From a virus (Duplodnaviria; Heunggongvirae; Uroviricota; Caudoviricetes), in IMG/VR virus record IMGVR_UViG_2703718819_000007: a stretch of DNA of 64,000 nucleotides. One strand, written 5' to 3'. Every line of letters starts with the position of its first letter. Position 1 is the stretch's first letter. The notes under the pieces are model-generated. The model had not been told where the DNA came from and did no database searches. It saw nothing but the letters and a program-made list of their open reading frames with translations. The position numbers and the translations under genes were made by a program. Positions 2,113 through 53,194 of this stretch are shown here, piece after piece.

Positions 2113-2279
2113 ATGGTAAATGAATAATTTTAAAAACTTCACGTTCTACATACCGGAGACGCCGGATATATAGGATATTGTTTTAAGTTGCCAGAGAAAT
2201 TTTTCCGGACGGATGCTGATAATAATGATGTAATTTTTCAAGATTTCTGGAAATCTGTATTCTGCACAGGCGCAATTGT

Positions 2280-5236: not shown

Positions 5237-5250
5237 TCAGGAGGTGAGTA

Positions 5251-5529: not shown

Positions 5530-5534
5530 GTGTC

Positions 5535-10543: not shown

Positions 10544-10575
10544 TTCACGATATTCCATTAATACCATTTCCTGAT

Positions 10576-10601
10576 GCCCGGCCATTGTGCCGGGTTTTTT
10601 T
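10576..10601 (+). terminator. Hairpin plus T-run immediately upstream of the giant ORF start
   Basis: cccggc-cattgt-gccggg followed by 7 T; implies the true start of the giant gene is the ATG at 10613. Confidence 0.55.
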
Positions 10602-10612
10602 ATGGAGTCTGT

Positions 10613-16600: not shown

Positions 16601-18994
16601 ATGACCAACGCGGAGGCGGCGGAAATCATGCAGCGTGTACGTAACAGCGGCAAACAGGCACAGTATGACCGTCTGGCAGGGATTGTTGACGATATGCTGG
16701 CCCGTCGCCGTGAGCTTATCCGTGAGGCAGGACTGGAAGAGAGCGGCGTGGTGGATGCCTGGCAGAAAGCCTACCGTTACTACGTTCCCCTGAAAGGGCA
16801 GGATGTTGACGGTGTGGTGTCACTGCCACGTACAGGCAAGGGATTCACCATCGGCGGGCGTGAAAGTAAGCAGGCCATGGGGCGCGCATCCCGCGCACAG
16901 TCTCCTTCCACTCAGGCGATACAGGATTTGAGCGAATCACTGATCCGCAATCGCAAAAATGAAGTGGGTAACGCCTTCCTGAAACTGGTACAGGATAATC
17001 CCGACAAGGATTACTGGCAGGTATTCACCGATGACAGACCGGATACCATGCGGACGATTGCAGAGCGCAAGGACAAGGAAACTGGTGAAACCATTCGCGA
17101 AGTTGTCGAACGCCCTGTACCGATGGCAATGATGGCAGACCGGTACTTCACCACCAAAAAGAACGGCAAAACGTACTACATCAAACTCCATGATCCGCGC
17201 CTGATGCGTGCGATGAAGAATATGGGACCGGAAACCAGTAACGCCGTAATCCGCACGCTGGGGAAAGTTAACCGCTTCCTGGCAACGGTGAACACGTCGT
17301 ATAACCCGGAATTCCTGGTCAGTAACTTCATCCGTGACGTACAGACGGCGGTGATGAACCTGAAGGCGGAGCAGGGAAGGAGCGACGGCAAACTGAAAGG
17401 GCTGGATAACTTATCCGCACTGGCTGTGGTGAAAGACAGTCGGTCTGCCATGTCTGCCGTATACGCCAGTCTGCGTGGTAAAACCCTCACGGGCAACGGT
17501 GCGCAGTGGCAGAAGGTGTGGAAAGAGTTTGTTGAGGACGGAGGTAAAACCGGCTGGTTTAACATGGGTGACCTTGAAGGCCAGCAGAAGGAAATGGATC
17601 GCCTTGTATCGCTGGCGAAGGGAGGATGGAAAGGCCAGAGTATCGGTGCATGGAATTCGTTCCTTAACCTTGTCGAGGATGCCAACGGGGCGGTTGAAAA
17701 CGCTCTGCGTCTTTCTGCCTATAAACACGCCCGTGATGCCGGTTTGTCACGCCAGCAGGCGGCGTCTCTTGCCAAAAACATGACGGTGAACTTTAACCGT
17801 CGTGGTGAGCAGGGGGCGCTGATGAACTCGCTGTACATGTTCGCCAACGCCAGTATTCAGGGAACGGCAAATCTGGTGAGAACGCTCGGACATCTTAATG
17901 GTGAGGGACCTTTACTGGAGCGCCTTCGCTGGAAGAATCTGAATGTTCCGCAGAAAATCGCGCTTGCCGCTGTGGGAGCGGGTTATCTGCTTGGCTCGCT
18001 TAACCGCAGCGTGGCGGGTGAGGATGATGACGGGGTTAACTGGTATGACAAAGTACCGTCTCATGTGAAAGAGCGTAACCTCGTCATTATGAAATCGGTG
18101 TTCGGGGGCAAGGCCGGAGAGTACTGGAGTATTCCTCTGCCTTACGGGTACAACGTTTTCTTCCTGCTTGGTCACACAGCCGAAGGGGTGGCAGCGGGCG
18201 ACCTGACCGCTTCACGTGCTGCCGGTAATGTTGTTGGTGGTGTGCTTGGGGCATTCAGTCCTGTGGGCAGTGAAACGTCGGAAACACTGTCCGGGGCATT
18301 GCTGAAAAATGCAGCGCCGACCATTCTGCGTCCGTTTGCGAACCTTGCCATGAATGAAAACTTCATGGGGGCGCAGATTTACCAGGAGAACATGCCGTTT
18401 GGTACACCAAAACCTGACAGCCAGCTGGGAAGACGTTCAACGCCAGAAGCGTACAAGGCGTTTGCATCCTGGCTGAATGCGTTCTCAGGTGGCAGCCAGT
18501 ACCGTCCCGGCGCGGTGGATATCACACCGGAATCGCTGAAATTCTGGATTGACTATATCTCCGGAGGGACAGGGCGCTTCATTTCCAAAACCACGGATGC
18601 GGCGGTGAAATCGCTGAATGGTATTGATATACCGGAACAGCAGGTGCCCTTCCTGGGGAAAATTTCGGGGGAGGTGATGCCGTATGCAGACCAGCAGAAG
18701 ATGTACGACCGGATGACAGAGATTGCGCAGTATCACGCAGAGCTGAAGAGTCTGACCGGTGCAGAAAGAACGGCGTTCATTGACGAGAACAACGGAAAAT
18801 TGTCGATGAACGGGCTTATGCAGGATACCCGGAAGAGACTGAAGGATTTGCGTAAACAGCGTGATGCCATTTATGCCGACAGTTCTCTCAGTCTGGCGCA
18901 GCAGGCGGCGATAGTGAAATCGGTAGAGCGGGATATGAAGGTTGCCGTGGATCGCTTTAACCGCGAGTACAACAAAAAAGTGGGAGTGGATTAA
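10613..18994 (+). CDS. Giant 2793-aa phage protein with two HExxH (zincin-like) motifs; candidate multi-domain polyvalent virion/ejection protein
   Basis: Single uninterrupted ORF; GGAG RBS 5 nt upstream of ATG 10613; HEWFH and HEIIHH motifs. Confidence 0.8.
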   Translation: MAYSEEQRPEAQLGNQNRNSLNIQQPGETDSYEAFFSDPNRWKDNSTSFSLGDVLPTMGKGFAQSVRGTGEMARGLGDAMIQSPVKTGARILNEFSRMGLPGVATVQDIFAGGSRGADEVIDTLPDGKNAVTDTVGKGLKATGKAVSDGAEATDEWLTGKMSPGAVRALNTPMTEGYDDSAVWVAKGVNLIGALVPDMVAGGVAKKVGDVTLRKMLTAGLEKKYIAAGMQPERATALAAEAVDKKMPDLFQAGLITHSTASAQGQSAMAAADAVLNADYSELAQSPKFQQTFLSIDADPQHAQLTDRQKMDLAKERVADEVRAQLATDPELLAVNAMAAKLGDAQLFNLVTRGTAKTVKSGIVRNATEQGAINAAQGGYSRYQENTALRETAGMDVSPWEGVADATIEGAAFGAAMGAPSGAVAGYRGRRQAAEEAAMRDAETVQQDDAAPQPESVDPVAQHRESMQGMNREQLLEQYADADMATEGDASAAHRREAASQLLNELDEQAKRQAVMNELKAKPRSELLEEYRRLSQKEERTETEEQQFQAIREVIRPQQEVTPEAQSQPENAEDGNGSIYPTVRFRDPNEVRIEINGNGASRPAERIEKVRPDNRYFTDEKSAMGSDVFRNAAATGLKPSVVKKGETQYAVEMDNPAFSEDVATETINTLADGERIADADPMEQPAFMRDPRFRGFTGDDTEVQARLARGNVPTAEELVRSQMAEGDAGPTAQELTERPRLPAPGDIHPGQGYPLPGEVARTPDENQAGRGGRFTTTGEVKGQSFQKGQALAPENAAGRQGETLEGEMVRRGLPSPDAQNATAPVREGLPAPDITHNVRMPQPDQLPRTVRNSLPELAQQAEVRRQAGGNRDIPQPETIAPESETTVATDREATVRGGEVRGKKIEDFGEEIKGAAKHRYAQLAETLGKTLEDRDYVTQPLSKLFPKPDYAKLASEGADADTLAMIALYRSDIPVKTKHNTAGWGESVKKVRHSVSEMLNGTVSAKRLAEWMEGRMPSRYADTWQLLRTLPPSQMDKASAYRVVSGVYQAAGGKRYDPPQKLYSLRNKDNKGSNLFFSESRDELLAKAKVWFAEQEEKSQAKGDEKTAPSPDDKIRFDVYRNTRSGDIFIAYGKNKMRVRGGFKSASDARKYIDLHRDELVRHVKEMREISREEQRNATNRDRTGPERRKGDVSPEQFSDAFGFRGVQFGNYVESPRRQADLNRAYDSLHDLADVLNVPTKALSLNGRLGLAFGARGKGKAAAHYESGEVAINLTKGNGPGALAHEWFHSLDNYFGRYDVSSDGKITSGGDFMTEAQRVRRIFKDGRYVDAEYPVRQEVYDAFKGVIQAIKNSDMPRRSALLDEVRSKPYWSTDVEMAARAFERYVQDKARMAGVENDYLVNIRKAPEHNTDNTYAYPTNAELDGGIREAFDHLFRTLKTRETDKGVAFYSRKGMTRTPEGNLISDVNRSAEAKGSPVPQVEAVARGVMSGIKDSDLTVRVVKSQKEAEALAGESFDGYGRVHAFYRPDKREIVLVADNIPDGQTVREKLRHEIIHHAMEHVVTPAEYQTIIKTVLKTRDSDNATIREAWRKVDASYGKESPEVQAGEFLAHMAEKQPNKFVAAWERVVALVKGVLRRTGLLKPTELNDIRLVRETIRTLGQRVREGYTPREDGVGASSQYSRSGKPDPFKVPEGEGERYRDDLARMMKSLRTTDLTVNIGRTPPVLRHLGAPDLPLVISRDTVRKATNGVKHVVPMDVIERLPELMHDPDAIYRSATERNAVVMLLDAVDKNGDPVVSAVHMKATQKLLEVNRIASVYGTENGKKLKSMETAGLTLYRREKLNPDGSLYRGLQLPKDEHSRQGSADKILYPEDIRKGPYYSRTSSLTPEETIASRFVRQMQDKFQVLKAVQENIRKTGGKIDDSNNAYMAEELFHGKAENDLNVMKERYVQPLAKLLADYKIAQADLDEYLYARHAPERNAHIAKINPKMPDGGSGMTNAEAAEIMQRVRNSGKQAQYDRLAGIVDDMLARRRELIREAGLEESGVVDAWQKAYRYYVPLKGQDVDGVVSLPRTGKGFTIGGRESKQAMGRASRAQSPSTQAIQDLSESLIRNRKNEVGNAFLKLVQDNPDKDYWQVFTDDRPDTMRTIAERKDKETGETIREVVERPVPMAMMADRYFTTKKNGKTYYIKLHDPRLMRAMKNMGPETSNAVIRTLGKVNRFLATVNTSYNPEFLVSNFIRDVQTAVMNLKAEQGRSDGKLKGLDNLSALAVVKDSRSAMSAVYASLRGKTLTGNGAQWQKVWKEFVEDGGKTGWFNMGDLEGQQKEMDRLVSLAKGGWKGQSIGAWNSFLNLVEDANGAVENALRLSAYKHARDAGLSRQQAASLAKNMTVNFNRRGEQGALMNSLYMFANASIQGTANLVRTLGHLNGEGPLLERLRWKNLNVPQKIALAAVGAGYLLGSLNRSVAGEDDDGVNWYDKVPSHVKERNLVIMKSVFGGKAGEYWSIPLPYGYNVFFLLGHTAEGVAAGDLTASRAAGNVVGGVLGAFSPVGSETSETLSGALLKNAAPTILRPFANLAMNENFMGAQIYQENMPFGTPKPDSQLGRRSTPEAYKAFASWLNAFSGGSQYRPGAVDITPESLKFWIDYISGGTGRFISKTTDAAVKSLNGIDIPEQQVPFLGKISGEVMPYADQQKMYDRMTEIAQYHAELKSLTGAERTAFIDENNGKLSMNGLMQDTRKRLKDLRKQRDAIYADSSLSLAQQAAIVKSVERDMKVAVDRFNREYNKKVGVD

Positions 18995-26496: not shown

Positions 26497-27523
26497 TTAT
26501 ATTTTTTCGATCTCGACCAGATTAGTGTGCTGCGGGTTTCCCTTCGCCAGTGGTGAAGGGCGCAGAGTGGTTAGCGTATTCACACAGCCGCCATGGTCGA
26601 TTTTATCGCCAGACATATTGGCCTCGTGCCAGGCTCCCTGGCCCATAGCGCTAACTCCAGGGAGAATACGTGGTGTTACTTTGGCTGGTAGCCGAACTTC
26701 GCCACGATGGTTAAACACCCGCACCATATCGCCGTTGGCAATCCCACGTTTCTGCGCATCTATAGGGTTGATCCACACCTCCTGACGGCAGGCAGCCTTC
26801 AGGAGATCAATATTGCCGTAGGTCGAGTGAGTACGGGATTTGTAATGGAAACCAAACAGTTGCAGTGGGAAGGTTCTACGTTCAGGGGAGTCCCAGCCTT
26901 CAAAGGTAGAGGCATAAACTGGCAGTGGGCTTATCACTTCATCTTTTTCCAGTTCCCAGGTACGGGCAATTTCCGCCAGCTTGCTGGAATAAATTTCAAT
27001 CTTACCGGAAGGTGTTTTAAGTGGATTTGCCTCGGGGTCGTCACGAAATGCTTTGTAGGCGACAAAATGACCATTGGGATCTTTACGCTTATAGATACCC
27101 ATTTTTTTCAGTTCGTCGTAAGACGGTAACGCCGGATCTTTGGCAAGCATTTTGGCGTACAGATGTTGTAACCATTGTTCCTGCGTGCGACCTTCAGTGA
27201 ACTTTTGATAGACGTCAGGTCCAAGACGTTTCGCGACTTCACTCAGGATCCAGTAAATCGGTTTGCGTTCGAATTTTTCGCTGGTGACAGGCTGGAGGAA
27301 AATGAGATATCCCATGTTACCGGCGTAGTCGTTAGGAATAATATCTTCCTGCTCAACGGTCATCAGGTCTGGCAGCAGAATGTCGGCATATTTTGCCGAT
27401 GAGGTCATAAAGTTTTCGATGACCACAATCATTTCGCATTTCGATTCGTCCTGCAGAATTTCATGCGTTTTGTTGATGTCAGAATGCTGATTAACGAGGG
27501 TATTTCCCGCGTAGTTCCAGATG
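26497..27523 (-). pseudogene. ynfE: ynfE 3' (C-terminal) fragment, separated from its 5' part by the 6.7 kb insertion
   Basis: Translation ...ESIWNYAGNTLVNQHSDINKTHEILQDESKCEM... to ...VEIEKI paralogous to the YnfF C-terminus; upstream part of the ORF reads into element DNA. Confidence 0.8.
27513..27523. repeat. Left copy of 11-bp direct repeat agttccagatg (target duplication or att core)
   Basis: Identical 11-mer at 34224-34234; joining the flanks restores an in-frame ynfE (KFIWNYAGN). Confidence 0.75.
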
Positions 27524-27588
27524 GACTCCACTGTCAGACGGATGGACGGACTTGAAGTAGTTGACTCAACGCTACTTAAGGTCCTGAT

Positions 27589-29211
27589 ATGACTGACATT
27601 AACCATGACAATACTGTATATCCATCCAGTTCTTTCTCTGGGTCTCCCTATCTGTATCAGCAAGTCTACACCTCAAGTCCTGACACAAGGCTGACACAAA
27701 TCAACCTACTCGGCGTGGCTTGCTCGCTACTTGCTAAGCCTCAGTTAGTCCGTAGAGCCAATGGTCGATATACTATCCGCTTCAGACTCAAGGGACAGAC
27801 CATCCCGTTTCTTTCAGTATCGACCCGAAGCACAGACAGGAGAGTAGCCACAATGCGTCAGAGAGAGCTTGCAGCCACAGCTAAGTCCTTCATGTTGGAT
27901 AGGCCTGATGTCTCGCTACAGGAGCTTACAGAGCACCTCCGGTCTATGGCTGAGCAGTTCCTGACAGACGCTAGTGACGATTACTGGAATGGACTTGAGG
28001 TCGCTACTTTGGTGGACGAGAAGTCCAACCTGAAGGAGCTAGCCGCTACGCAAGCCTTAAGTCTGGACCAGCAGAAGGGCATAAGGTTAGCGCTTGAAGT
28101 CCTGACCGCAGCACAGCAGAGGGTAGACACTGGTGATACCTCTGGTCTGATTAAGCTGATTGATGATAATAACCATACTGATTACTCAACTATAGGCGAC
28201 TCTACGTCAATTCTGAAGAATGAGCAGGGGGATAGACCAGCAGTTTTCACACAGGAGCCCCAACCTGAGGTCACTATCGCTGACCAACCAGCTATCTGTA
28301 GTTTTTCTGAGCTAGTGTCCTCGCTGCTGGCTGAGAAGGTCCAGACCCTGAAGTCATCCAGCTACAAGGACCTGTCGTCCTCACTGAATACCGTCTCTCG
28401 GTTCTTACCTGAAGACATGGACCTGATGTCCCGCTCTGAGTGGCTGGCTGTCAGGGACGCTATGCTGGCTTCTGAGGTGAGACCGTCGACGATTAACAAG
28501 CTGCTGACTAAGGCGAAGATGTGTCTTGACTACGGTCTGATGAATGGGCAACTTGAGGGCCGCAACCCTATTGAACGGATGAAGCTGACCAAGGATATCG
28601 ACTCCAAGCGCAGAGCGTTCACAGACGAGGAGCTGGAGAGACTTCTGGTCCGTGTTGAGGCTGAGTATCAGTTCACACGACACACGGCTCACACGACCTC
28701 TGAGGCCCGTAGATGGGCGTCTCTGGTGTCTGTAGTTACTGGCGCTCGGTCTGCTGAGGTCTGCCACCTGACTAAACGTGACATTGTAACCTTAGACAAT
28801 GGACTGGTCTGTATCGACATCAACGAAGATGGGGACGGTAAGTCTGTGAAGAACAAGCATTCAGTCCGACTTGTGCCGTTGACCGATGGGGCCTGTGGTC
28901 TTGACCTGAAGTCCTTCCTCGAATGGGTAGACATGCAGCCTGACGAGGGTCCTCTCTTCGGGATGACTCCAAGCGCATACTCTAGCTGGTTTAACTCTAG
29001 GGTCCTGACTGAGGCCCTAGGAGACTCTCAGGATGTCTCTCTCCACAGTCTGAGGCATTGGCTGGCGACCCGCATGAAAGAGCGTGGAGTCAATCTGGTG
29101 GATGCTCAGGGCATCTTAGGCCATAGCAGTCAGTCCATTACGTATGACCTGTACGGGAAAGGACATGCAGTCCAGAGACTGGCTGAGGTGCTGAAGACAG
29201 CTTTACTTTAA
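27589..29211 (+). CDS. Tyrosine recombinase/phage integrase (start uncertain: ATG 27589, GTG 27715 or ATG 27853)
   Basis: C-terminal HSLRHWLAT...GHSSQSITYDLYG catalytic motifs (H-x-x-R, Y); N-terminal RYTIRFRLKGQ arm-binding-like motif. Confidence 0.85.
   Translation: MTDINHDNTVYPSSSFSGSPYLYQQVYTSSPDTRLTQINLLGVACSLLAKPQLVRRANGRYTIRFRLKGQTIPFLSVSTRSTDRRVATMRQRELAATAKSFMLDRPDVSLQELTEHLRSMAEQFLTDASDDYWNGLEVATLVDEKSNLKELAATQALSLDQQKGIRLALEVLTAAQQRVDTGDTSGLIKLIDDNNHTDYSTIGDSTSILKNEQGDRPAVFTQEPQPEVTIADQPAICSFSELVSSLLAEKVQTLKSSSYKDLSSSLNTVSRFLPEDMDLMSRSEWLAVRDAMLASEVRPSTINKLLTKAKMCLDYGLMNGQLEGRNPIERMKLTKDIDSKRRAFTDEELERLLVRVEAEYQFTRHTAHTTSEARRWASLVSVVTGARSAEVCHLTKRDIVTLDNGLVCIDINEDGDGKSVKNKHSVRLVPLTDGACGLDLKSFLEWVDMQPDEGPLFGMTPSAYSSWFNSRVLTEALGDSQDVSLHSLRHWLATRMKERGVNLVDAQGILGHSSQSITYDLYGKGHAVQRLAEVLKTALL
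27681..27700. repeat. Left arm-type repeats tgacacaagg-c-tgacacaaa
   Basis: Same 20-mer recurs at the right end (34136-34155) in direct orientation. Confidence 0.6.
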
Positions 29212-29218
29212 GTAGGAA

Positions 29219-29270
29219 GACCCAAGGTGGAGACCATATACGGCTTGATGGTTGAGACCTTGGGTCACTG
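29219..29270 (+). terminator. Long-stem hairpin after integrase stop; possible terminator or processing site
   Basis: gacccaagg ... ccttgggtc 9-bp inverted repeat. Confidence 0.35.
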
Positions 29271-29399
29271 AAGTCTGACTGAAGTTAGGGAGGGTGATAA
29301 TAATCATAATCCCTCCTGACTATAGGCCCACTGGTTCGCCTTCGGCTGTCCGACTCTAAGTCTGTCTGTGGTCTTATTTAAACTGCGTCCTAAACTCCA

Positions 29400-29650
29400 G
29401 TCCCTCCAAATTCCTATGGTCTCCTCTTGACATTCCTGTTTAACTGTGAGTCGCCTCTGGTCTCTCTTTATATATACTTCCTTAATTCCTGAGGCGTCTT
29501 TAGTCCTTGACATTCTGTCCAACCTGTGAGTCACATCCGGTCCTCCCTCTTTATATTTACTTCCTTAATTCCTAGGGTCGCCTTAATCCTTGACATCCAG
29601 TCCAGCCTGTGAGTCACATCCTGTCGCGCTACTGTATGCATCACCAGTGG
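29400..29650. repeat. Three tandem ~80-83 bp repeat units each containing TTGACAT and palindrome TGTGAGTCACA; candidate operator or iteron array
   Basis: TTGACA at 29427, 29507, 29590; cttccttaattcct and ctgtgagtcac recur with the same period. Confidence 0.65.
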
Positions 29651-29652
29651 TG

Positions 29653-29675
29653 GACTTGATTATCACTATAGGGGA
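29653..29675 (+). promoter_or_regulatory. T7-type single-subunit phage-RNAP promoter motif (tatcactatagggga)
   Basis: 12/12 match to T7 core TCACTATAGGGA (-8 to +4); 36 nt upstream of an RBS-preceded ORF. Confidence 0.6.
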
Positions 29676-29705
29676 ACCAACTAATTCAACGACAGGAGAT
29701 ACTCT

Positions 29706-30074
29706 ATGGCACGACCAATCGCAACTCACGACAACACGTTCACCAAAGCCTACTTGCAGCAGCACTGCGGGGACCTGCTGTCATTCGATGGTCAGGGTGA
29801 CTTGAGTGGCTGGCTGGATGATGTCCTTACTGGTGCTGGTCGCCTGAGCGAATCAATGGCAAGCAATACCAAGCCTGTCAGCCCATACTTGATTCTGACC
29901 CAACTACTAACGCACGACACATTAACTGTAAGCGCTGTGCAGGAGTCCCTGAGCCGTAAGCGTGTTGCCTTGGGTGAACCTATGGTTTCAACTCGCTACG
30001 CTCGCTACGTCTATTCTACGGTGGTCAGCGCCAGTAAATCCGTCAAGTACCACGCCAGTAAAGCTGGTTCATGA
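29706..30074 (+). CDS. Hypothetical protein (122 aa), first gene downstream of a T7-type promoter
   Basis: AGGAGA RBS 6 nt upstream of ATG. Confidence 0.6.
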   Translation: MARPIATHDNTFTKAYLQQHCGDLLSFDGQGDLSGWLDDVLTGAGRLSESMASNTKPVSPYLILTQLLTHDTLTVSAVQESLSRKRVALGEPMVSTRYARYVYSTVVSASKSVKYHASKAGS

Positions 30075-30095
30075 TAAAGGACCCTAAACTATCAC
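30073..30095 (+). promoter_or_regulatory. Second T7-type promoter motif (tatcactatagggaaga)
   Basis: Shares exact 13-mer tatcactataggg with 29660-29672. Confidence 0.6.
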
Positions 30096-30504
30096 TATAG
30101 GGAAGACCAACCTTGCCTCTGAGTCTGATGCGTCAGAACATGCGAGCATCTGGTCAACCGACATTAAGTATCTCTCCTAAGTAATCAAGGCCCGTGACCG
30201 CCTCTGTCAGACCTCCTGTATGACCTCCAGCTCGTTAGCGTTCTTTAGTCGTCTCGGTTAGTAGCTCGTCTACTCACTACATTGGCTTAAGTCTATCACC
30301 GCTCACCATCTGGAAGTCCTTACAGCTCGTCCTGACATGCGGTCGCACCTTTATACGTACATGGAGAACATGGTCACTCCAGACCGTCAACATTTAACCA
30401 TTCACTTTCGTTAAGCACTTTCTGATGGGTCCGTTTAGGATGCGTCTGAATGGTGCGGACTCCATGTGGAGACAGAAAGTGCTTTACCAAAGGAGCATCT
30501 TTGT

Positions 30505-31020
30505 ATGAATACCGAATTACCAGTAACTAACCGCCAGTTCTTAATCATCCTGCTGACCAATGCAGAGTCCAGTGTCGATTGCTGTCGCTATAACTTAGAC
30601 CTGCTGAAGTTATCCCGATGGTATGCCCAGGCGGAAGACTGGGACTATGAGAAAATCCGGGAGATGTACGCGGAGCCTATCCAGTCATACCTCCAGACAC
30701 ACACCGAGGAAGAGCTGAAGCGTGGCCTGCAGGACATCTTCTATTTCAACAATCCTTACACCTGTGAGGGTGACTCAGAAGAGATGGATTGGATAGCGTC
30801 ACGCTCTGATGCCGACTTGAAGCACATCTCTAACGCGATGATGCAGGTGGAGAGCAAATGGTCTCGCCGACTTCAGGTCCTAACTGAGGATTACGAAAAC
30901 GGCACCTTTGATAAGCTGGTCCCACCTGATACCGAACGTCTTCAGGCGAAAGCTGACCAAGAACAGCGCTTCAAGTCCTTTGCCGAAGCTCTGGCGGGAG
31001 GTGCCTCTTATGACTTCTGA
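30505..31020 (+). CDS. Hypothetical acidic protein (~171 aa)
   Basis: AAGGAG RBS 10 nt upstream of ATG 30505. Confidence 0.55.
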   Translation: MNTELPVTNRQFLIILLTNAESSVDCCRYNLDLLKLSRWYAQAEDWDYEKIREMYAEPIQSYLQTHTEEELKRGLQDIFYFNNPYTCEGDSEEMDWIASRSDADLKHISNAMMQVESKWSRRLQVLTEDYENGTFDKLVPPDTERLQAKADQEQRFKSFAEALAGGASYDF

Positions 31021-31504
31021 CAATAAGCAGGAATACACCATTCATATCTTCGGTCAGGACATCACCAGTCAGGACGGATTGTTTCGACTCGATGAAATTC
31101 GCCGGGTCGGCATTCAGATTGGCAAAGTAGAAGACACCGAGTCGACACAGTACAAGCGTTTTGCTCAGACCAAAGTTGGAAAGCTACTGAGGAATAGGCA
31201 GAAAATCCGCCTTATCCGAATGGGTGAACTCGGGTCTACCGTCCTTGCTGACCCCGCCGCTACTGTAGAGTTTGGTCGCTGGCTGGACTTTGAGTACGGA
31301 CTGGCAGTCTCTGAAGCCTTCGTGTCTATGACCTCCAGCGCCACCGTGCAGTCTGCTGTAGCGTCTGCTGAGGACATCAAGCCGGAGACCAAGGAATTCA
31401 TCCAGCGTCATGGCACAGGCCTCTACATCGCCGGACGTGAAGTCTCACAGGCTGAGTATTCAGACTATCAAGCTGTGACCGCTGGTCGCTGTGAGTGGAG
31501 GTAA
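31009..31504 (+). CDS. Hypothetical protein (~165 aa)
   Basis: ATG overlapping the upstream stop (translational coupling). Confidence 0.5.
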
Positions 31505-31510
31505 GTAATC

Positions 31511-31684
31511 ATGGCTATGATTGACCCACGCACACCTGAGGGCCGCATGACTCTCCGTTACCGTGGCTACCGGACTGAAGTCCTCCTCAGAGAGCTTGGT
31601 CTAGACCCGGAAGATGAGACCCGCCAGCACCAATCCCGAGACGAGCTGATAGCGCAACTGGTCGCTATGAAACTGTCTGCCTAA
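31511..31684 (+). CDS. Small hypothetical protein (57 aa)
   Basis: GGAGG RBS upstream of ATG; not in ORF track because <60 aa. Confidence 0.45.
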   Translation: MAMIDPRTPEGRMTLRYRGYRTEVLLRELGLDPEDETRQHQSRDELIAQLVAMKLSA

Positions 31685-31780: not shown

Positions 31781-32272
31781 ATGATGTTCAACAACAACAA
31801 CTGGAAGCTGTCAGTCACCGACATCAACCTTTATGAAAACACTGTGAGTCTGGACGGTCAGCCCTATCCGCTGTCGCTCGCTATCAAGACCCTCATTCCG
31901 GGCTACCTGTCAGGCCTGCCGTCTACCAGCCGCGAGGCAATGGAGTTACTGGAAGCTCTGGCTGAAGCTGGCGTAGCTATTGGCAACTTCTTCAGTAATG
32001 ACCTGATGACCGCCTATGGTCGCCGCCAGCTTAACAAACGAGCTGAGGCTGAGCGTATCGCTAAAGAGCTGGCATCTCAGAAAGAGCGTATGCGTGAAGA
32101 GAACATGACCGATGCAGAGTGGCAGAAAGAGCTACAGCGCCGCGAACAAGTCAAAGCTGAACGCCGGACCTATGGTGAGAACCTCCGCAGTGCAACCCAT
32201 TCCGCTGGTCGCTCCCGTGCCGCTATTGTCGCTGACCTTGAGTCAGGCGGTAACTGGCTGGACAGCTTATAA
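31781..32272 (+). CDS. Hypothetical protein with charged coiled-coil C-terminal half (163 aa); scaffold-like by position
   Basis: AGAGGAGA RBS; K/E/R-rich helical region; immediately precedes the 328-aa ORF. Confidence 0.5.
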   Translation: MMFNNNNWKLSVTDINLYENTVSLDGQPYPLSLAIKTLIPGYLSGLPSTSREAMELLEALAEAGVAIGNFFSNDLMTAYGRRQLNKRAEAERIAKELASQKERMREENMTDAEWQKELQRREQVKAERRTYGENLRSATHSAGRSRAAIVADLESGGNWLDSL

Positions 32273-32356
32273 GACACACAGTCCCTGACCCGATGTTAGG
32301 GACTCCTCAGTTTTGAGGACTCACAGTATTTAAACTAATTTAGGAGATTGATTATT

Positions 32357-33343
32357 ATGACGATTAAAGACGCTTTCCAGTTTGGCATTGAGCCAGTACG
32401 CATCACCGATACCGACAACATTCAGGTCAATGAAGGTCTGCCGACTAACGCTGACCCGCAGGTCTACGCCCTCCAGTTAGCTAAGACGGTTAAGGCTATG
32501 CTGAACGGTGTACTTAAGGACGCTCAAGAGAACATCCCGTTCCCTGTAGAAGTCCTGCCGACCCGTAACAGCTTACCGACCCCAATCATTGCCCACACTC
32601 TGGCTGACCGCTCTGTGGTCGTTCCTGTCCGTGGTGGCAAGCGACCTGAAGTCGTGACCATTCCGTCTGGACAAGAAATCGTGGTCGAACCAATCGAGCA
32701 GGCTATTCTCATCTCTGAGCAGACCACTCTCTGGGACGCCAAGTCATCCACCGGATTCACTCAGGGCACACTTCAGCAGGACGCTATGAACATCTGTGAG
32801 AATGTGGTCCGTACCATCAACGCTCACATGGTCGACGTTCTGGAATCCTCTAAGCTGCTGAAGACCGTAGAGCTTCCTGTCCTGACTGGTAGCCTGACCG
32901 CTAAGGCAGACGCTATCATGGACGCTCTGTATGAGAACACAGAGCCTTCTTTCGGTTCTGAGGTGTCTAACTACGGTATTATCGCTCATGAGAGCCAACT
33001 GAAAGCACTGTCCCGTCTGGCTGCTAAGCAAGGCTTCTCCGGTGAAGACGCTATCGTCGATATGCTGGGAACAGACATCGCCTACTACAACGGTGAAGAC
33101 AAGGGTGTATTCATGCTGGCTAAACGCTTCACGGCTCTGAGCTTCGGTTGCTTCCGTCACGATGGCGAGAATATTACGGTCGTCCTTTCACGTGATGGCG
33201 ACTCTCAGTCCCACGACTTGGAAATCCTCGGTAAAGTGTACGTTGTCGCTGAAGCTGCTACGACCATCAAGATGGGCACTGGCTCAGCTACTGCCGTCCT
33301 GCCTGTAGTCAAACGCCTGAAGTTCACCAAGACCGAAGCGTAA
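32357..33343 (+). CDS. Hypothetical 328-aa protein, largest non-integrase gene of the element; candidate structural (capsid-like) protein by context only
   Basis: AGGAGA RBS 8 nt upstream; leader tttaaactaatttaggagattgattattATG resembles the T7 gene-10 leader. Confidence 0.5.
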   Translation: MTIKDAFQFGIEPVRITDTDNIQVNEGLPTNADPQVYALQLAKTVKAMLNGVLKDAQENIPFPVEVLPTRNSLPTPIIAHTLADRSVVVPVRGGKRPEVVTIPSGQEIVVEPIEQAILISEQTTLWDAKSSTGFTQGTLQQDAMNICENVVRTINAHMVDVLESSKLLKTVELPVLTGSLTAKADAIMDALYENTEPSFGSEVSNYGIIAHESQLKALSRLAAKQGFSGEDAIVDMLGTDIAYYNGEDKGVFMLAKRFTALSFGCFRHDGENITVVLSRDGDSQSHDLEILGKVYVVAEAATTIKMGTGSATAVLPVVKRLKFTKTEA

Positions 33344-33348
33344 GACCA

Positions 33349-33588
33349 ATGGGTAAGAGCATTAGTAAAGGCTTCAGGTCCATCGCCAAGGGCCTGACAG
33401 GTGGTGGTGGGACTCAAGGTGGGGCTTCGGTCCCGCCTCCTGTAGCTCCTCCTGTAGCTCCTCCAGATGACGCTCAGCAAGCTGTAGTCGATACCCAAGG
33501 TCAGGAGACCGAGGGAGGTAAGACCATGAGCAGAGGTAAGTCTGGACTGAATATCAGCAGGACTTCAGGTGGTGGCCTGTCACTGTGA
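33349..33588 (+). CDS. Small Gly/Pro-rich protein (79 aa)
   Basis: ORF 5 nt after previous stop. Confidence 0.4.
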   Translation: MGKSISKGFRSIAKGLTGGGGTQGGASVPPPVAPPVAPPDDAQQAVVDTQGQETEGGKTMSRGKSGLNISRTSGGGLSL

Positions 33589-33826
33589 TTAAGACATCTA
33601 TACAGCCTGTGGAGGGTGGACGATATCAAGCAACAATCTGGATGACACGCAGAGTCTATAAGCGGCTATGCTGGTCACTGGCTGAAGCTGAACAGTGGGT
33701 GAGACGTAAAGTGCCTACCGTTCAATCGTTCCAATCATCATGATAACTATGGTCTGGACCAATGGTCTGGACCTTTGTTTTGTACTAGTTATCTAGTGCA
33801 GTAGTACAATAGACGAAGGAGGCTTT

Positions 33827-33982
33827 ATGTCCATGACTTCCGCAGACCTAAGGTCCCTCCTGACTCTGGTCTATAAACTCGTGCTCCTCTCTGTGGGTCT
33901 CTATATGGTCCTCTCCGGTCGACTCGGTGTGAATGTATTCGACACTCTGTCTAAGGCTGTGGGTGGGCTTCTGGGGGCTTAG
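33827..33982 (+). CDS. Small hydrophobic (single transmembrane) protein, 51 aa; holin-like by size only
   Basis: Strong AAGGAGG RBS; LVYKLVLLSVGLYMVLSG hydrophobic core. Confidence 0.4.
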   Translation: MSMTSADLRSLLTLVYKLVLLSVGLYMVLSGRLGVNVFDTLSKAVGGLLGA

Positions 33983-34135
33983 GTTTGGACTCACAGTGGG
34001 ACCGATGGTTTCTGACAGAAAAATGTGAATGACCATCTAATACATTAAGCCAGCAGACTTCTCCCCCATAGCCCCGCCTCAAGTCCAGACCGAGGCCACC
34101 GGGGTCCTGACCAGCCGTCTAGACATCCCGTCTAA

Positions 34136-34168
34136 TGACACAAGGCTGACACAAAGCCTGACACAAAG
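34136..34168. repeat. Right arm-type repeats: three copies of tgacacaa(g/a)g
   Basis: Direct repeats at 34136, 34147, 34159 matching the left-end 20-mer. Confidence 0.6.
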
Positions 34169-34223
34169 TCCTTGACTCAATGCAGGACCTCAGACCTACT
34201 AAGGGTCCGCTTCAAGTCCTTGA

Positions 34224-34234
34224 AGTTCCAGATG
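34224..34234. repeat. Right copy of 11-bp direct repeat agttccagatg
   Basis: Identical to 27513-27523. Confidence 0.75.
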
Positions 34235-35634
34235 AACTTAATGGGCACATCCAGTTTATCTTTGCCGCGGACGCCGTCGCGGATTGCCGTCATTTGCGGA
34301 CCATGATCGATAGCATCTGTCCAGCTGAAGCAGGAGATTGACATTTTGACCGGATTATCCAGCACCGGCAGGCGTTCTATGGTAATGGTATAGGTCGATT
34401 CACGCGCGCCACTATTTCCGCCGCTGATGCCGACATTGCCCGTCAAAATAGGTAACATAGCAATAGCGCGTGCAGTCAGTTCGCCGTTTGCCTGGCGTTG
34501 CGGCCCCCAGCCCTGGCAGATATAAGCGGGTTTTGCTGTGCCAATTTCACGCGCCAGTTTGATGATACGGTCTACCGGGATACCGGTAATTTGCGAAGCC
34601 CACTGCGGCGTTTTCGCTGTGTTATCATCACCTTCACCAAGAATATAGGCTTTATAGTGACTATTTTTGGGTGCATCTGCGGGTAAGGTTTTTTCGTCAT
34701 AGCCGACGCAGTATTTATCGAGAAAAGGTTGATCAACGAGATTTTCGTTAATCAATACCCAGGCAATACCCGCAACCAGCGCGGCATCGGTGCCCGGGCG
34801 AATAGGGAGCCATTCATCTTCACGACCAGCAGCCGTATCGGTATATCGCGGATCGATAGCAATCATTTTGGCGTTCGATTTCTCGCGCGCTTTTTCAAGA
34901 AGATAAGTGATGCCACCGCCGCTCATGCGGGTTTCTGCCGGGTTGTTACCAAACATCACGACCAGCTTGCTGTTTTCAATATCCGTGGTGCTGTTGCCAT
35001 CATTACTGCCGTAGGTGTAGGGCATGGCACAGGAAATTTGCGCGGTGCTGTAGGAGCCATACTGATTGAGTGAACCGCCGTAGCAGTTCATCAGGCGTTT
35101 GACCGCCGAGGCTGATGGCGAAGAGCGGGTCATATTGCCGCCAACGATCCCCGAAGAGTACTGAATATATACAGCCTCATTGCCATATTGTTCGACGGTT
35201 TTCTTCAGGCTACTGGCGATAGTATCCAGGGCTTCATCCCAGCTAATCCGTTCGAATTTGCCTTCGCCGCGTTTGCCCACGCGTTTCATTGGGTAATTCA
35301 AGCGATCGGGATGATTAATACGCCGACGGATGGATCGACCACGCAAACAGGCGCGTACTTGATGATTGCCATACTCGTCGCTGCCGGTGTTGTCAGTTTC
35401 CACCCAGGTGACTTCATTATCTTTAACATGTAGACGAAGTGCACAGCGGCTACCACAGTTGACGGAACAGGCACCCCAGATCACTTTTTCGCTGGCCTGT
35501 TGTACCGCTGCCGCTGCACTGCGCAGGGTGAACGGTAAAGAAAAACCGCCTGCAGCCAGCGCCAGAGAACCTATCGCGGTTGATTTAACGAGTGTTCTGC
35601 GGCTGATGCCCACCATTCGGTCATTTTTGGACAT
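34224..35634 (-). pseudogene. ynfE: ynfE 5' (N-terminal) fragment with Tat signal, interrupted by the element
   Basis: MSKNDRMVGISRRTLVKSTAIGSLALAAGG...; reading frame runs into element sequence and stops at 34177. Confidence 0.85.
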
Positions 35635-39787: not shown

Positions 39788-40807
39788 ATGAAAAGCATAT
39801 TAATTGAAAAACCGAATCAACTGGCGATTGTCGAACGTGAAATACCCACCCCGTCAGCGGGTGAAGTACGAGTAAAAGTGAAACTTGCCGGAATTTGTGG
39901 TTCAGATAGCCATATTTATCGTGGGCATAATCCTTTTGCGAAATATCCGCGCGTCATTGGACATGAATTCTTTGGCGTCATTGATGCGGTGGGTGACGGC
40001 GTGGAAAGCGCCAGAGTCGGTGAACGTGTTGCTGTCGATCCGGTGGTCAGCTGTGGGCATTGCTATCCGTGCTCTATAGGTAAACCGAACGTTTGTACGA
40101 CACTTGCTGTATTAGGTGTGCACGCTGACGGTGGTTTCAGTGAATATGCCGTGGTTCCGGCAAAAAATGCGTGGAAAATTCCTGAAGCAGTGGCCGATCA
40201 ATATGCGGTGATGATCGAACCTTTTACCATTGCGGCTAACGTAACCGGACATGGTCAACCGACTGAAAATGATACCGTTCTGGTTTATGGTGCCGGTCCA
40301 ATCGGCCTGACGATCGTTCAGGTATTAAAAGGCGTCTATAACGTTAAAAATGTGATTGTTGCCGATCGCATTGATGAACGACTGGAAAAAGCGAAAGAGA
40401 GCGGGGCAGACAGGGCGATTAATAACAGCCAGACACCGCTTGGCGAGATTTTCGCTGAAAAAGGCATCAAGCCGACATTAATTATCGATGCGGCTTGTCA
40501 TCCTTCTATCCTGAAAGAGGCCGTTACGCTGGCTTCTCCAGCGGCACGTATTGTATTGATGGGCTTCTCCAGTGAACCGTCTGAAGTGATTCAGCAAGGA
40601 ATTACCGGAAAAGAACTCTCTATTTTCTCTTCACGCTTAAATGCAAATAAATTTCCGGTTGTTATCGACTGGTTAAGTAAAGGGTTAATTAAACCAGAAA
40701 AATTAATTACCCATACGTTTGATTTCCAGCATGTTGCTGATGCCATTAGTTTATTTGAACAGGATCAAAAACATTGCTGCAAAGTCTTACTCACTTTTTC
40801 TGAATAA
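39788..40807 (+). CDS. rspB: Starvation-sensing protein RspB (zinc-dependent alcohol dehydrogenase family)
   Basis: GICGSDSHIYRGHNPFAKYPRVIGHEFFG zinc-binding motif; GAGPIG Rossmann motif. Confidence 0.9.
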   Translation: MKSILIEKPNQLAIVEREIPTPSAGEVRVKVKLAGICGSDSHIYRGHNPFAKYPRVIGHEFFGVIDAVGDGVESARVGERVAVDPVVSCGHCYPCSIGKPNVCTTLAVLGVHADGGFSEYAVVPAKNAWKIPEAVADQYAVMIEPFTIAANVTGHGQPTENDTVLVYGAGPIGLTIVQVLKGVYNVKNVIVADRIDERLEKAKESGADRAINNSQTPLGEIFAEKGIKPTLIIDAACHPSILKEAVTLASPAARIVLMGFSSEPSEVIQQGITGKELSIFSSRLNANKFPVVIDWLSKGLIKPEKLITHTFDFQHVADAISLFEQDQKHCCKVLLTFSE

Positions 40808-40994: not shown

Positions 40995-42290
40995 TTAATT
41001 TTTCATTGATTCGTTATGGGGCATGGTTGGGGCAAACTCGCTTAACTGTGTATTTAACAAAGCTACCTGTGCATTATTGTTTTCAGACATCCATTTTCCG
41101 TATACCTGAAATACCATTTGCGCATCTGCATGGCCCATCTGGTTTGCTATAAATGCCGGGTTAGCACCAGCTGTCAGCGACCAGCAGGCATAAGTATGTC
41201 TCGACTGATATGATTTTCGATGGCGGAGTCCGGCACGTTTTATCGCTGCGTCCCACATCTGCCTTATTGAGTCAACGGTAAAATGGTCACCATAATTTTT
41301 TACTCTCGCTGACACTTCAGGTTGAAAAACAAAGGTGCATTTTTGTTTTTCTGTTCTGCCATACTCTCTGAGGTGAACATCAATGATATGCTCTTTGCTC
41401 AGTCTCGTTAATGTCATCTGACTCCGGAGAGCGTCGATTGCTGGCTTAATAAGATGAATGGCCCGATTGGTTCCCGCCTGTGTTTTTGGTACCGTGAAAC
41501 GGTCTTTTGCTAAATTTCTCCTGATCATCATTGTTCCATTTTTCAGATCTATGTCCTCCCATCCAAGTGCACACAGCTCACCAGGGCGAACGCCAGTATA
41601 AACAGAAACACACCATAAATTTTTTGCTTGCTGATTTCTGCACGCATCGATAAGACGGATAAATTCCTCCCGCGAAAGAGGATCCGGAATGGTTCTTGAT
41701 TCCTTTAATGGCGAGATCCCCTTAAACGGATTATCTGCCAGGTAACCGTTATCAACACCAAACTGGAACACGGCGTTAAGATTTGTCATGTAATTATTTA
41801 CAGTTACAGCCGATCTCCCTGGTTGTGTAACAATATAGTTACTTTTGGGGATCTGGTATCCAGTCAGTAGCTCTTTACGAACCTCCAGTAATTTTTCTTT
41901 ATTAATCGATGAGGCAAGATTTTTTTCACCGATTATGCTCAGGATATTTTTGATGACGGCACGGTATGTGTTGAGTGATGTTTTGGCGACTTCAGTTTCT
42001 TTCAGTGCCAGAAATTTTTCAGCCAGTTCTTTTATGGTTAAATCTTGTCGGGCCTCACCAAATTTTTCCAGATTGCGTGAGGAGGGAAACTGTTTTGCAT
42101 AGTCGAAAACACCAGTTTTTATTGCGTAACAAACAGAGGAGCGTAGTTCACCTGCAACGCGCCTGTTTTTTGCTGTGTCAGGAACCCCCAGATTTTCCCT
42201 GACTCTTACGCCTTTATAAACAAACCAGATACGTAATTTCCCTCCATGGTTTTCCACGCCTGTCGGATATTTCATTTCAACTTCTCTCAT
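40995..42290 (-). CDS. Phage integrase (tyrosine recombinase) of the Qin-type prophage
   Basis: C-terminal catalytic region (RHTYACWS...GHADAQMVFQVYGKW); start may be M6. Confidence 0.85.
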   Translation of the reverse strand: MREVEMKYPTGVENHGGKLRIWFVYKGVRVRENLGVPDTAKNRRVAGELRSSVCYAIKTGVFDYAKQFPSSRNLEKFGEARQDLTIKELAEKFLALKETEVAKTSLNTYRAVIKNILSIIGEKNLASSINKEKLLEVRKELLTGYQIPKSNYIVTQPGRSAVTVNNYMTNLNAVFQFGVDNGYLADNPFKGISPLKESRTIPDPLSREEFIRLIDACRNQQAKNLWCVSVYTGVRPGELCALGWEDIDLKNGTMMIRRNLAKDRFTVPKTQAGTNRAIHLIKPAIDALRSQMTLTRLSKEHIIDVHLREYGRTEKQKCTFVFQPEVSARVKNYGDHFTVDSIRQMWDAAIKRAGLRHRKSYQSRHTYACWSLTAGANPAFIANQMGHADAQMVFQVYGKWMSENNNAQVALLNTQLSEFAPTMPHNESMKN

Positions 42291-51864: not shown

Positions 51865-52143
51865 ATGGCACGCAACGTAAAATATTACAATTCTGATAAT
51901 TCGCCCGTTCTTGTCTGCACGCACGAGCGGTATTCTCACGCATTCAAGTCTGAATGGTTCCAACACCCTCCATGCACTGAAGAGCAGGCTGAATGGATAA
52001 TTCAGTGTTACCGCAGGCGCGGATACGAGGTTAAGAAAGCCCTTAGCCTCGACTACCGTCACTGGATAATCTCAGTCAGATTGCCTTACTCCGAACGCCC
52101 ACCACGTGCGTCCCGCACTTTCCAGCAACGGATCTGGAGGTAA
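51865..52143 (+). CDS. Hypothetical protein (92 aa)
   Basis: ORF. Confidence 0.35.
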   Translation: MARNVKYYNSDNSPVLVCTHERYSHAFKSEWFQHPPCTEEQAEWIIQCYRRRGYEVKKALSLDYRHWIISVRLPYSERPPRASRTFQQRIWR

Positions 52144-53194
52144 CGTGCGGGTATTACTTAGACCTGTTCTGGTGCCTGAGCTTGGGCTGGTGGTCCTTAA
52201 GCCGGGCCGTGAATCCATACAGATATTTCATAATCCTCGAGTGCTGGTGGAACCGGAACCAAAAAGCATGCGTAATCTGCCATCCGGAGTCGTTCCTGCC
52301 GTTCGCCAGCCGCTGGCGGAAGACAAAACATTGCTGCCGTTTTTTAGTAACGAACGGGTGATTCGTGCTGCTGGCGGCGTTGGCGCATTGTCTGACTGGC
52401 TATTACGTCATGTTACATCCTGCCAGTGGCCTAATGGCGATTACCATCACTCTGAAACAGTCATTCACCGTTATGGTACCGGCGCAATGGTGTTGTGTTG
52501 GCACTGCGACAACCAACTGCGTGACCAGACATCGGAATCACTGGATCTGCTTGCTCAACAAAATCTGACAGCATGGGTGATTGACGTCATCCGTCACGCA
52601 ATAAGCGGTACGCAGGAACGTGAATTATCTCTGGCTGAATTATCCTGGTGGGCGGTCCGCAATCAGGTGGCGGACGCGCTACCGGAAGCGGTATTACGTC
52701 GTTCGCTGGGATTACCAGCGGAAAAAATCTGCTCGGTGTACCGCGAGAGCGACATCGTACCGGGAGAGCAGACCGCCACCAGCATATTGAAACAACGCAC
52801 AAAAAATCTTGCACCGTTGCCTTACGCCCACCAGCAACAAAAACTACCACAGGAAAAGACGGTGGTAAGCATCACCGTTGATCCAGAGTCTCCGGAATCT
52901 TTCATGAAGCTGCCTAAACGTCGCCGCTGGGTTAAGGAGAAATACACACGTTGGGTTAAGACACAGCCGTGTGCTTGCTGCGGTATGCCAGCCGACGATC
53001 CGCATCATCTGATTGGTCACGGGCAGGGCGGAATGGGAACAAAAGCACATGATCTCTTTGTGTTGCCTTTGTGCAGAAAGCATCACAACGAGCTGCATAG
53101 GGATACAGTGGCATTTGAAGAGAAGTATGGCTCCCAACTGGAGCTGATATTTCGTTTTATCGATCGCGCGCTGGCAATTGGCGTACTGGCGTAA
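52106..53194 (+). CDS. DUF968 (YdfU-like) prophage protein with C-terminal Cys/His cluster
   Basis: CACCGMPADDPHHLIGHGQGGMGTKAHDLFVLPLCRKHHNELH. Confidence 0.6.
   Translation: MRPALSSNGSGGNVRVLLRPVLVPELGLVVLKPGRESIQIFHNPRVLVEPEPKSMRNLPSGVVPAVRQPLAEDKTLLPFFSNERVIRAAGGVGALSDWLLRHVTSCQWPNGDYHHSETVIHRYGTGAMVLCWHCDNQLRDQTSESLDLLAQQNLTAWVIDVIRHAISGTQERELSLAELSWWAVRNQVADALPEAVLRRSLGLPAEKICSVYRESDIVPGEQTATSILKQRTKNLAPLPYAHQQQKLPQEKTVVSITVDPESPESFMKLPKRRRWVKEKYTRWVKTQPCACCGMPADDPHHLIGHGQGGMGTKAHDLFVLPLCRKHHNELHRDTVAFEEKYGSQLELIFRFIDRALAIGVLA

Follow-up and report, generated by a model that had tools for sequence, protein, structure and literature searches.

The ynfE island and its two probable promoters

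The 64,000-nt stretch of DNA analysed here (hereafter the window; IMG/VR record IMGVR_UViG_2703718819_000007) is a piece of the E. coli chromosome, in which two sites resembling promoters of T7-group phages, P1 and P2, lie within an island of 6,711 bp that interrupts ynfE. The gene is broken into a C-terminal fragment (26497-27663, minus strand) and an N-terminal fragment (34177-35634, minus strand), and the borders of the island are marked by an 11-bp direct repeat, AGTTCCAGATG, found on the plus strand as the left attachment (att) core in ynfE at 27513-27523 and as the right att core at 34224-34234. We consider it rather likely that this 6.7-kb element, with P1 and P2, behaves as a satellite of K1F-type T7-like phages.

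Scanning the 64-kb window for the 13-mer TATCACTATAGGG yields two exact copies, both on the plus strand, at 29661-29673 and 30090-30102. An earlier, sequence-only reading of this DNA had rightly reported two exact copies, but placed them at 29660-29672 and 30080-30092, off by 1 and 10 nt, and its end point of 30095 falls inside the second copy. With +1 assigned by the T7 convention, P1 extends from 29654 to 29676 (-17 to +6; ACTTGATTATCACTATAGGGGAA) with the +1 G at 29671, and P2 from 30083 to 30105 (-17 to +6; CCTAAACTATCACTATAGGGAAG) with the +1 G at 30100. The same reading had seen the T7 core from -8 to +4, TCACTATAGGGA, in both sites; this is exact for P2 and holds at 11 of 12 positions for P1, which has G at +4, so that the claim of a T7 core stands. 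From -12 to -9 both sites are unlike T7, as had been stated. P2 has the architecture of the 23-bp K1F class, with an AT-rich segment from -17 to -13, the specificity region AACTAT at -12 to -8, a TCACTATA core and a GGGA start. Both sites are intergenic and oriented like all island genes, P1 upstream of orf122 and P2 upstream of a leader and the block that begins with orf171. The +1 of P1 lies 35 nt 5' of the ATG at 29706 of a 122-codon open reading frame (ORF) with a ribosome-binding site (RBS), AGGAG, at 29694-29698, which bears out the earlier description of the first site as standing upstream of an RBS and an ORF. P1 is kept in the related loci L001, L005, L006 and L085, and L004 has the full consensus at the equivalent site. 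Some part of the island region is matched in 190 of 5,426 complete E. coli genomes; the P2 region occurs in 91 of them, in one copy per genome and always in the chromosome. In strain 2017.15.01CC (NZ_AP021890), for example, 45 nt of this region match at 100% identity.

All island genes are on the plus strand, as are the further features of the island given here. The first gene encodes a tyrosine integrase (27589-29211, true start uncertain; Pfam Phage_integrase E=1.7e-14, PHROG 1 E=4.7e-43) that is 85-93% identical to those of related islands. A TGACACAA-type repeat at 27681-27700 recurs as an exact 20-mer at 34136-34155, and TGACACAA is found a third time at 34159-34166; repeats of this type are kept in the Citrobacter freundii island L086 and the Serratia island L088 and are probably integrase arm sites. 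Downstream of P1, orf122 (29706-30074; ATG 8 nt after the RBS) matches PHROG 23123, a family of unknown function (E=1e-8), and is 97% identical in L006. From P2, a non-coding leader of about 400 nt (30100-30504) is predicted that holds no credible ORF and has an RNA fold z-score of -3.75 against shuffles; no Rfam match was found in the leader or anywhere in the island. Long leaders follow the promoters in L086 (about 640 nt) and L088 too. The leader is followed by a variable middle module of orf171, orf166 and orf57 (30505-31684), which have no family matches; orf166 and orf57 are kept in L086 and L048, and in L006 a KilA-N protein is found at the equivalent position. Directly 5' of the capsid gene lies orf163 (31781-32272), 33% identical to its L086 counterpart and 30% identical (E=0.002) to a DUF6971 protein at the equivalent position of another related island, L100; we infer that it is a candidate scaffold protein.

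The 329-aa protein encoded at 32354-33343 has no Pfam or PHROG match. With distant homologues gathered by a HMMER search of 1.8 billion cluster representatives, an AlphaFold2 model built on a 36-sequence alignment reached a predicted local distance difference test (pLDDT) score of 82 and a predicted template modelling (pTM) score of 0.77; a run with close homologues alone gave a pLDDT of 43 and was discarded. Foldseek returned 193 PDB and 196 BFVD matches to this model at E<=1e-3, and among the matches listed most are HK97-fold phage capsid proteins, several of them from T7-like phages, and encapsulins, with a few other phage structural proteins. By its modelled fold, the protein is a major capsid protein of the HK97 type. 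The next gene (33349-33588) encodes a 79-aa homologue of T7 gp7.3, a tail/adsorption protein (PHROG 1320, E=1.8e-11), that is 40% identical to gp33 of Escherichia phage phiYIO1-1 (E=6e-15) and 44% identical to the gene 7.3 product of Citrobacter phage CR8, and that has the MGKSISK N-terminus and SRTSGGG C-terminus of the gp7.3 family. No other homology to proteins of these two phages was found in tblastx and tblastn comparisons of the island with their genomes. Pfam, PHROG and NCBIfam searches of the 10 island ORFs found no portal, terminase, protease, tail, connector, polymerase or primase families, and none of the genes typical of P4 (alpha primase, Sid, Psu, delta) was detected among these ORFs.

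The right part of the island holds orf52 (33585-33743), a small basic protein known from the ORF listing and without a family match; by eye, its 52 aa (...GRYQATIWMTRRVYKRLCWSLAEAEQWV...) resemble a small AP2-type DNA-binding domain, for which database support is nil. A terminator of the hairpin and T-run type at 33751-33783, with a 10-bp stem of which 6 pairs are GC, followed by TTTGTTTTGT, closes the gene block. Beyond it, the small hydrophobic orf51 (33827-33982, RBS GAAGGAGG) occupies the position of T7 gene 19.5 and is 80% identical in L086, as against only 44% for the capsid protein, and the right arm extends from 33983 to 34234. Between the integrase gene and P1, a non-coding stretch (29212-29650) contains a hairpin element, described below, and three tandem repeats of 80-83 bp (29426-29625; TTGACAT...CTGTGAGTCACA; families D1 and D2 in repeat detection). 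Their unit consists of TTGACAT, 12 nt and then CTGTGAGTC; a palindrome, TGTGAGTCACA, is present in units 2 and 3, and an AT-rich tract follows units 1 and 2. No convincing sigma-70 -10 element was found in these repeats, which are confined to the E. coli island sublineage, and we rejected them as analogues of the T7 A1-A3 host promoters for lack of an acceptable -10 and for their occurrence in a single sublineage.

Probable K1F-type promoters without a polymerase gene

Which polymerase would read P1 and P2? The sole phage matched by a 2.4-kb regional query is phiYIO1-1, a 40.5-kb T7-like phage with its RNA polymerase (RNAP) gene at 2009-4690, which we regard as K1F-like because it has an endosialidase tailspike. 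Its genome contains 11-13 sites of the form TATCACTATAGG(G/A) preceding gene blocks, with the consensus cCTAAACTATCACTATAGG(G/A). P2 (CCTAAACTATCACTATAGGGA) and the phiYIO1-1 promoters at 17122 and 20942 have an identical 20-mer, CTAAACTATCACTATAGGGA. Scored with a position weight matrix (PWM) derived from 11 phiYIO1-1 promoters, P2 reaches 34.8, within the range of the phage's own promoters (29.3-35.0), and P1 reaches 20.3, while all other positions in the window stay at or below 13.0 and 20 shuffles gave a maximum of 17.1. The 18-mer CTAAACTATCACTATAGG is present in 77 IMG/VR stretches, all of them T7-like genomes of about 39-40 kb with several copies each, except for three contigs that are relatives of the island. 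The 17-mer of the P1 variant and the 16-mer GAGACCCACACTATAG give no more than scattered single matches in IMG/VR, where the P1 variant was not found as a multi-copy phage promoter. Judged by their sequences, P1 and P2 are very probably promoters for the RNAP of K1F-type (T7-like) coliphages; P2 is not distinguishable from the promoters of phiYIO1-1 itself, and P1 is probably a weaker site. We take AACTATCACTATAGGGAGA to be the K1F-specific promoter used with K1F-loop variants of T7 RNAP in orthogonal T7 RNAP engineering. Engineering of such K1F-loop variants is mentioned in PMC11880802.

A search of the window with the phiYIO1-1 and CR8 polymerases (tblastn) found no single-subunit RNAP, with a best E-value of 0.28. 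This agrees with the sequence-only reading, which had seen no such polymerase and had proposed T7-group promoters of distinct specificity served by a polymerase in trans, a proposal now supported by the match to K1F-type phage promoters.

Could the motifs have arisen by chance, or do they belong to a conserved sequence of an unrelated kind, for instance a regulatory site of the host? The 13-mer with up to two mismatches is indeed not rare in shuffled sequence, where 18 of 100 shuffles held at least two matches, and a shuffle test of this kind is uninformative. However, the exact 20-nt match to phage promoters and the other T7-group promoter types found at the equivalent position in homologous islands both speak against this explanation, and chance can be discarded because the PWM parts P1 and P2 from all other positions in the window. 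We regard such an origin as extremely improbable, and the possibility, raised with the original description of the motifs, that they belong to an unrelated conserved sequence is effectively refuted by the 20-mer, the PWM and the promoters of the relatives.

Promoter exchange among related islands

Homologues of the capsid gene are found in a common layout of an integrase, a few small ORFs, a 131-165-aa protein and the capsid protein, and the related islands measure about 6.4-6.7 kb where both ends can be defined. The integrase-to-capsid layout, with differing T7-group promoters, occurs in at least a dozen Gammaproteobacterial genera. The loci covered comprise C. freundii L086, Serratia L088, L100 (in a tRNA gene), the JGI metagenome contig L101, the Logan contig L103 and a set from Leclercia, Citrobacter, Enterobacter, Buttiauxella, Kluyvera and Shimwellia (L105-L116). 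Capsid identity among distant lineages with a similar gene set is 24-44% (41-44% for L086). One capsid cluster at 90% identity or more extends across Citrobacter, Enterobacter, Hafnia, Salmonella, Escherichia and Proteus, which offers indirect support for transfer.

Every lineage examined has T7-group promoter-like sites on the coding strand in the interval from the integrase gene to the capsid gene, and their specificity region differs by island lineage; no such sites were found in the flanks of the approximately 17-kb loci of the L105-L116 set. In L086 and Kluyvera L114, AAGGAAGGTACACTATAGGGAGA, which is annotated in CR8 as the 23-nt promoter of genes 9 and 10, is found twice without a mismatch, together with ACCCACACTATAG-type and AATTAACCACACTATAG sites. 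Two copies of TAAACCCCGACTATAGAGAG are present in Serratia L088, and L100 has three near-T7 sites, AATTACGACTCACTATAGGGAGA (21/23 to the T7 consensus) and two variants. L101 carries two CCCTCACTATTG sites, AAAAACCCTCACTATTG and AAAACCCCTCACTATTG, and L103 two AAAAACCCTCACT and two AAAAACCCCCACTC sites, which we assume to be gh-1-like. Some islands have near-T7, T3-like or gh-1-like sites. The 17-mer TATACCCTCACTATAGG is found in two copies in each of two T7-like genomes of about 40 kb; the additional matches to it that were examined, in L117, L120, L121 and L124, are unrelated to the island.

The Leclercia, Citrobacter, Enterobacter, Buttiauxella, Kluyvera and Shimwellia islands have K1F-type, ATACCCTCACTATAGG-, CR8- or ACCCACACTATAG-type sites, often in adjacent pairs. 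In the islands of Leclercia, Citrobacter portucalensis and a Buttiauxella metagenome-assembled genome, pairs 26-27 nt apart consist of a CC(C/T)TCACTATAGG site followed by a K1F-type site, the first members beginning ATACCC..., ATACCT... or AACCCC.... Pairs of two specificities, 26-33 nt apart, are located at 5483/5509 and 6035/6062 in L105, at 2348/2375 and 2918/2945 in L107 and at 4641/4674 and 5342/5375 in L114. Such adjacent pairs suggest a response to two different helper polymerases, and the tandem cassettes of some islands would serve two different helpers. That helper-type promoters covary with island lineage implies that induction would depend on the helper, and the promoters must match the phages met by each host.

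Do these islands represent decayed remnants of a temperate T7-like prophage, with the promoters as functionless fossils? Integrases do exist in some T7-like phages, LUZ100 among them, and several island copies are truncated or hit by insertion sequences (IS), with IS3/IS66 insertions at 3657-4870 in L004, at 4746-5959 and 6828-8041 in L005 and at 5009-7321 in L086. As these insertions have struck the integrase gene or the interval that separates the promoters, a portion of the island population is decaying. On the other hand, lineages whose capsid proteins are only 24-44% identical agree in their minimal gene set and in size, genes for RNAP, DNA polymerase, portal and terminase have left no trace, and in sequence the capsid protein shows no relation to capsids of the T7 type. 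Moreover, perfect-consensus sites swapped among homologous elements are hard to explain unless the promoters are functional, and argue for ongoing selection. Taken together, we think it unlikely that the islands are remnants of this kind.

Beyond the island, the window carries parts of two other prophages. Positions 1 to about 23000 represent the end of a separate prophage with tail-fibre proteins (Phage_fiber_2, collagen repeats, a Peptidase_S74 chaperone domain and Phage_Tail_Tip). At 10574-18994 it encodes a polyvalent protein of 2806 aa that combines the domains LPD38, LPD5, LPD1 and MuF_C, and its minus strand has Ead/Ea22 and DUF551 genes. The second, lambdoid or Rac-like prophage occupies 40995-64000 and contains an integrase that has an Arm-DNA-binding domain (40995-42290, minus strand). 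An 823-aa ORF (42634-45105, minus strand) is at the position that the exonuclease has in L001; further products are a DUF968/HNH protein at 52106-53194 and, at 60697-62799, a large terminase of the gpA type.

Terminal-repeat-like boxes and a putative satellite of virulent phages

Two short boxes of the island resemble the terminal repeats of T7-like phages. The first, an "L box" (TCTCCCCCATAGCCCCGCCTCAAGTCCAGACCGAGGCC; 34059-34097, plus strand), is like the left part of these repeats and aligns to nt 23-61 of phiYIO1-1 with z=7. Its non-coding core, CCCCCATAG, is found at nt 25-37 of T7, phiYIO1-1 and CR8 and is kept in most of the island lineages examined for it, a set that did not include L101 and L103, with a CCCCCCGTAGGCCC variant in L100. 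The second box (TCTCTGGGTCTCCCTATCTGTAT; 27630-27657, plus strand) resembles the right border of the T7 terminal repeat together with the concatemer junction (CJ) pause site, with local alignments to phiYIO1-1 187-212 (z=9) and to T7 145-166 (z=5.4); the T7 counterpart reads TCTCTCTGTGTCCCT followed, across the border, by ATCTGTT, with a similar sequence in phiYIO1-1. Serratia L088 has a non-coding CCTCTATCTGTAA box. In the integrated island the boxes are at opposite ends, and they become colinear with the phage termini once the island is circularised; after excision they would lie about 300 nt apart across attP, which is predicted to join 34234 to 27524. Packaged island DNA would be expected to have its termini near 33990-34040 and near 27650.

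A further link to K1F-like phages is the hairpin element at 29289-29324 (plus strand), which is composed of GGAGGG, a 16-nt AT-rich loop, CCCTCC and then TGACTATA. Its 32 nt from 29293 to 29324 recur with 100% identity in phiYIO1-1, on the opposite strand at 40046-40077, and in K1F-like phages the element is located between the last (phiOR-like) promoter and gene 19.5, in either orientation. It also occurs in L040 (7189-7217) and in L077 (around 8639). An analogous hairpin was seen in the Serratia island L088 at about 12005-12045.

How might such an element live? It would be silent until a cognate phage infects and produces its polymerase, which would then read the whole rightward block from P1 and P2, insensitive to the phage shut-off of host transcription, and so yield orf122, the long leader, the variable genes, the scaffold-like protein, the HK97-fold capsid protein and the gp7.3 homologue. 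The integrase would excise and circularise the element, and the helper replisome would copy it, as T7-type origins are phage promoters. Helper terminase, portal and tail would package it, with the element's own capsid protein probably forming the shell, by way of the terminal-repeat-like boxes that are contiguous only across the circular att junction. The scheme is plausible in the light of three known properties of T7: its replication origins are phage promoters, its concatemer processing needs polymerase pausing at CJ, and it packages plasmids that bear an origin and a concatemer junction. In keeping with a satellite, the island has its own recombinase and att sites, and genes for autonomous virion production or replication are not recognisable in it.

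Several observations weigh against this interpretation. P1 deviates from the consensus at -13 and -11 and scores below the range of phiYIO1-1's own promoters, and no phage with the Serratia-type promoter TAAACCCCGACTATAGAGAG was found. The CJ-like box lies inside the 5' end of the integrase ORF, where it encodes SPYLYQQ, and the distant L100 integrase starts ...TYLYQR; the box is therefore ambiguous, as it codes for a conserved YLYQ motif, and its resemblance to T7 may partly or wholly be due to coding. The integrase gene is upstream of P1, which leaves the trigger of excision unexplained. An exact search of IMG/VR and the JGI metagenomes found no circular attP junction, and L126 (Logan SRR29836470, 6661 bp), although of island length, still has chromosomal flanks. 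The family searches gave neither portal nor terminase in the island, and its capsid protein has no sequence relation to that of the helper (hhalign probability 0.15).

L126 consists of one island relative with about 15 nt of flank on each side and a 16-nt repeat, TAGTTCAGATTGAACT, at the borders; it is probably an assembly break at att that arose from mixed occupied and empty sites, and not a circular form. Like three other contigs of about island length (L007, L008 and L125) it was set aside, as all four are chromosomal or still joined to flanks.

The main rival to a satellite is a defence or interference element that is triggered by the phage polymerase and is not itself transferred, in which a decoy capsid and a gp7.3 mimic would poison the assembly of T7-like phages. 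Its expression would be wired to the phage polymerase just the same, the gp7.3 homologue could be dominant-negative as a component of the tail, the best fold matches include encapsulins, and the failure to detect an excised form in the searches described above fits an element that stays in place. Known satellites also interfere with their helpers, and interference and transfer are not mutually exclusive. PADLOC, however, finds no defence-system match in the island; the conserved integrase and att sites, the unit of about 6.5 kb and the near-identical capsids in six genera point to active horizontal mobility; and terminal-repeat-like boxes at the att junction would have no role in pure defence. 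We therefore give this alternative a minor but real chance, greater than that of a prophage remnant.

If the element is a satellite, how does it compare with known systems? P2 has the same 23-bp architecture as the K1F-class promoters of T7-group phages (Autographiviridae), but here such promoters are chromosomal, in an element without a polymerase gene, and one of them is off-consensus. In the P4/P2 system, too, the satellite carries helper-type promoters that are turned on by the helper's transcription machinery, a principle that the island would share; P4, however, relies on sigma-70 promoters activated by the zinc-finger proteins Ogr and delta, whereas in the island a whole orthogonal polymerase would be hijacked. 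Plasmids with a T7 promoter-origin and a concatemer junction are reportedly replicated and packaged by T7 (Chung and Hinkle 1990). The island likewise has phage promoters and terminal-repeat-like boxes; unlike these transducing plasmids it is natural and has an integrase and a capsid gene, and its junction mimic is putative, with one of the two boxes ambiguous.

Phage-inducible chromosomal islands of the kind that forms capsids (cf-PICIs) are, like the island, integrative satellites with an HK97-fold capsid protein of their own, beyond the remodelling of the helper's. As described in the literature, their head and packaging module is complete, with portal, protease, terminase and connectors, and they take only tails from the helper; they are roughly twice the size of the 6.7-kb island, in which portal, terminase and protease were not detected. 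In contrast to those of cf-PICIs, the island's helpers would be virulent podophages, and the wiring would run through phage-RNAP promoters. PICMIs (minimalist islands of the phage-inducible chromosomal type) and PLEs (elements resembling phage-inducible chromosomal islands) are small integrative elements as well, and theirs is an activation by lytic helper infection. To our knowledge, no PICMI or PLE uses promoters of a helper single-subunit RNAP. According to PMC10803314, PICMI is an element of about 6 kb with minimal gene content, as is the island. PICMIs reside in Vibrionaceae, have other helpers and lack capsid genes, while the island has a capsid gene and Enterobacterales hosts; of the PICMI set of int, alpA, fis and primase, the island shares the integrase class only, the alpA, fis and primase families not having been detected.

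The context thus turns what looked like orphan promoters into a probable phage satellite. Most likely, these islands are satellites of virulent T7-like phages, constitute a new family and are switched on by the helper's polymerase. Neither satellites of T7-like phages nor chromosomal elements carrying promoters for a phage single-subunit RNAP were described in the literature that we searched, and we know of no satellite of T7-like phages. A wider proposal, which we put forward tentatively and hold to be somewhat less probable than its opposite, is that "mini-capsid" satellites of about 6.5 kb, so far undescribed as a family, depend on virulent T7-like phages and are widespread in Gammaproteobacteria; in these, exchangeable promoter cassettes would double as origins, a terminal-repeat mimic would be completed upon excision, and a small HK97 capsid of their own would be mounted on the portal and tail of the helper.

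T7-like phages are the textbook example of strict virulence, and both phage therapy and synthetic biology rely on them. If the island is indeed their satellite, a chromosomal element can hijack even a transcription system that is orthogonal and encoded by a phage, as it goes unread by the host polymerase and is on only when the right phage polymerase is present. The islands would then list, as a natural catalogue, which polymerase goes with which promoter and which helper with which host, and lytic podophages would become a candidate route of gene transfer. A capsid protein without a portal or terminase poses the sharp question of how a foreign capsid would assemble on a T7-type portal. The element would also be a likely source of resistance to, or interference with, therapeutic phages of the K1F type.

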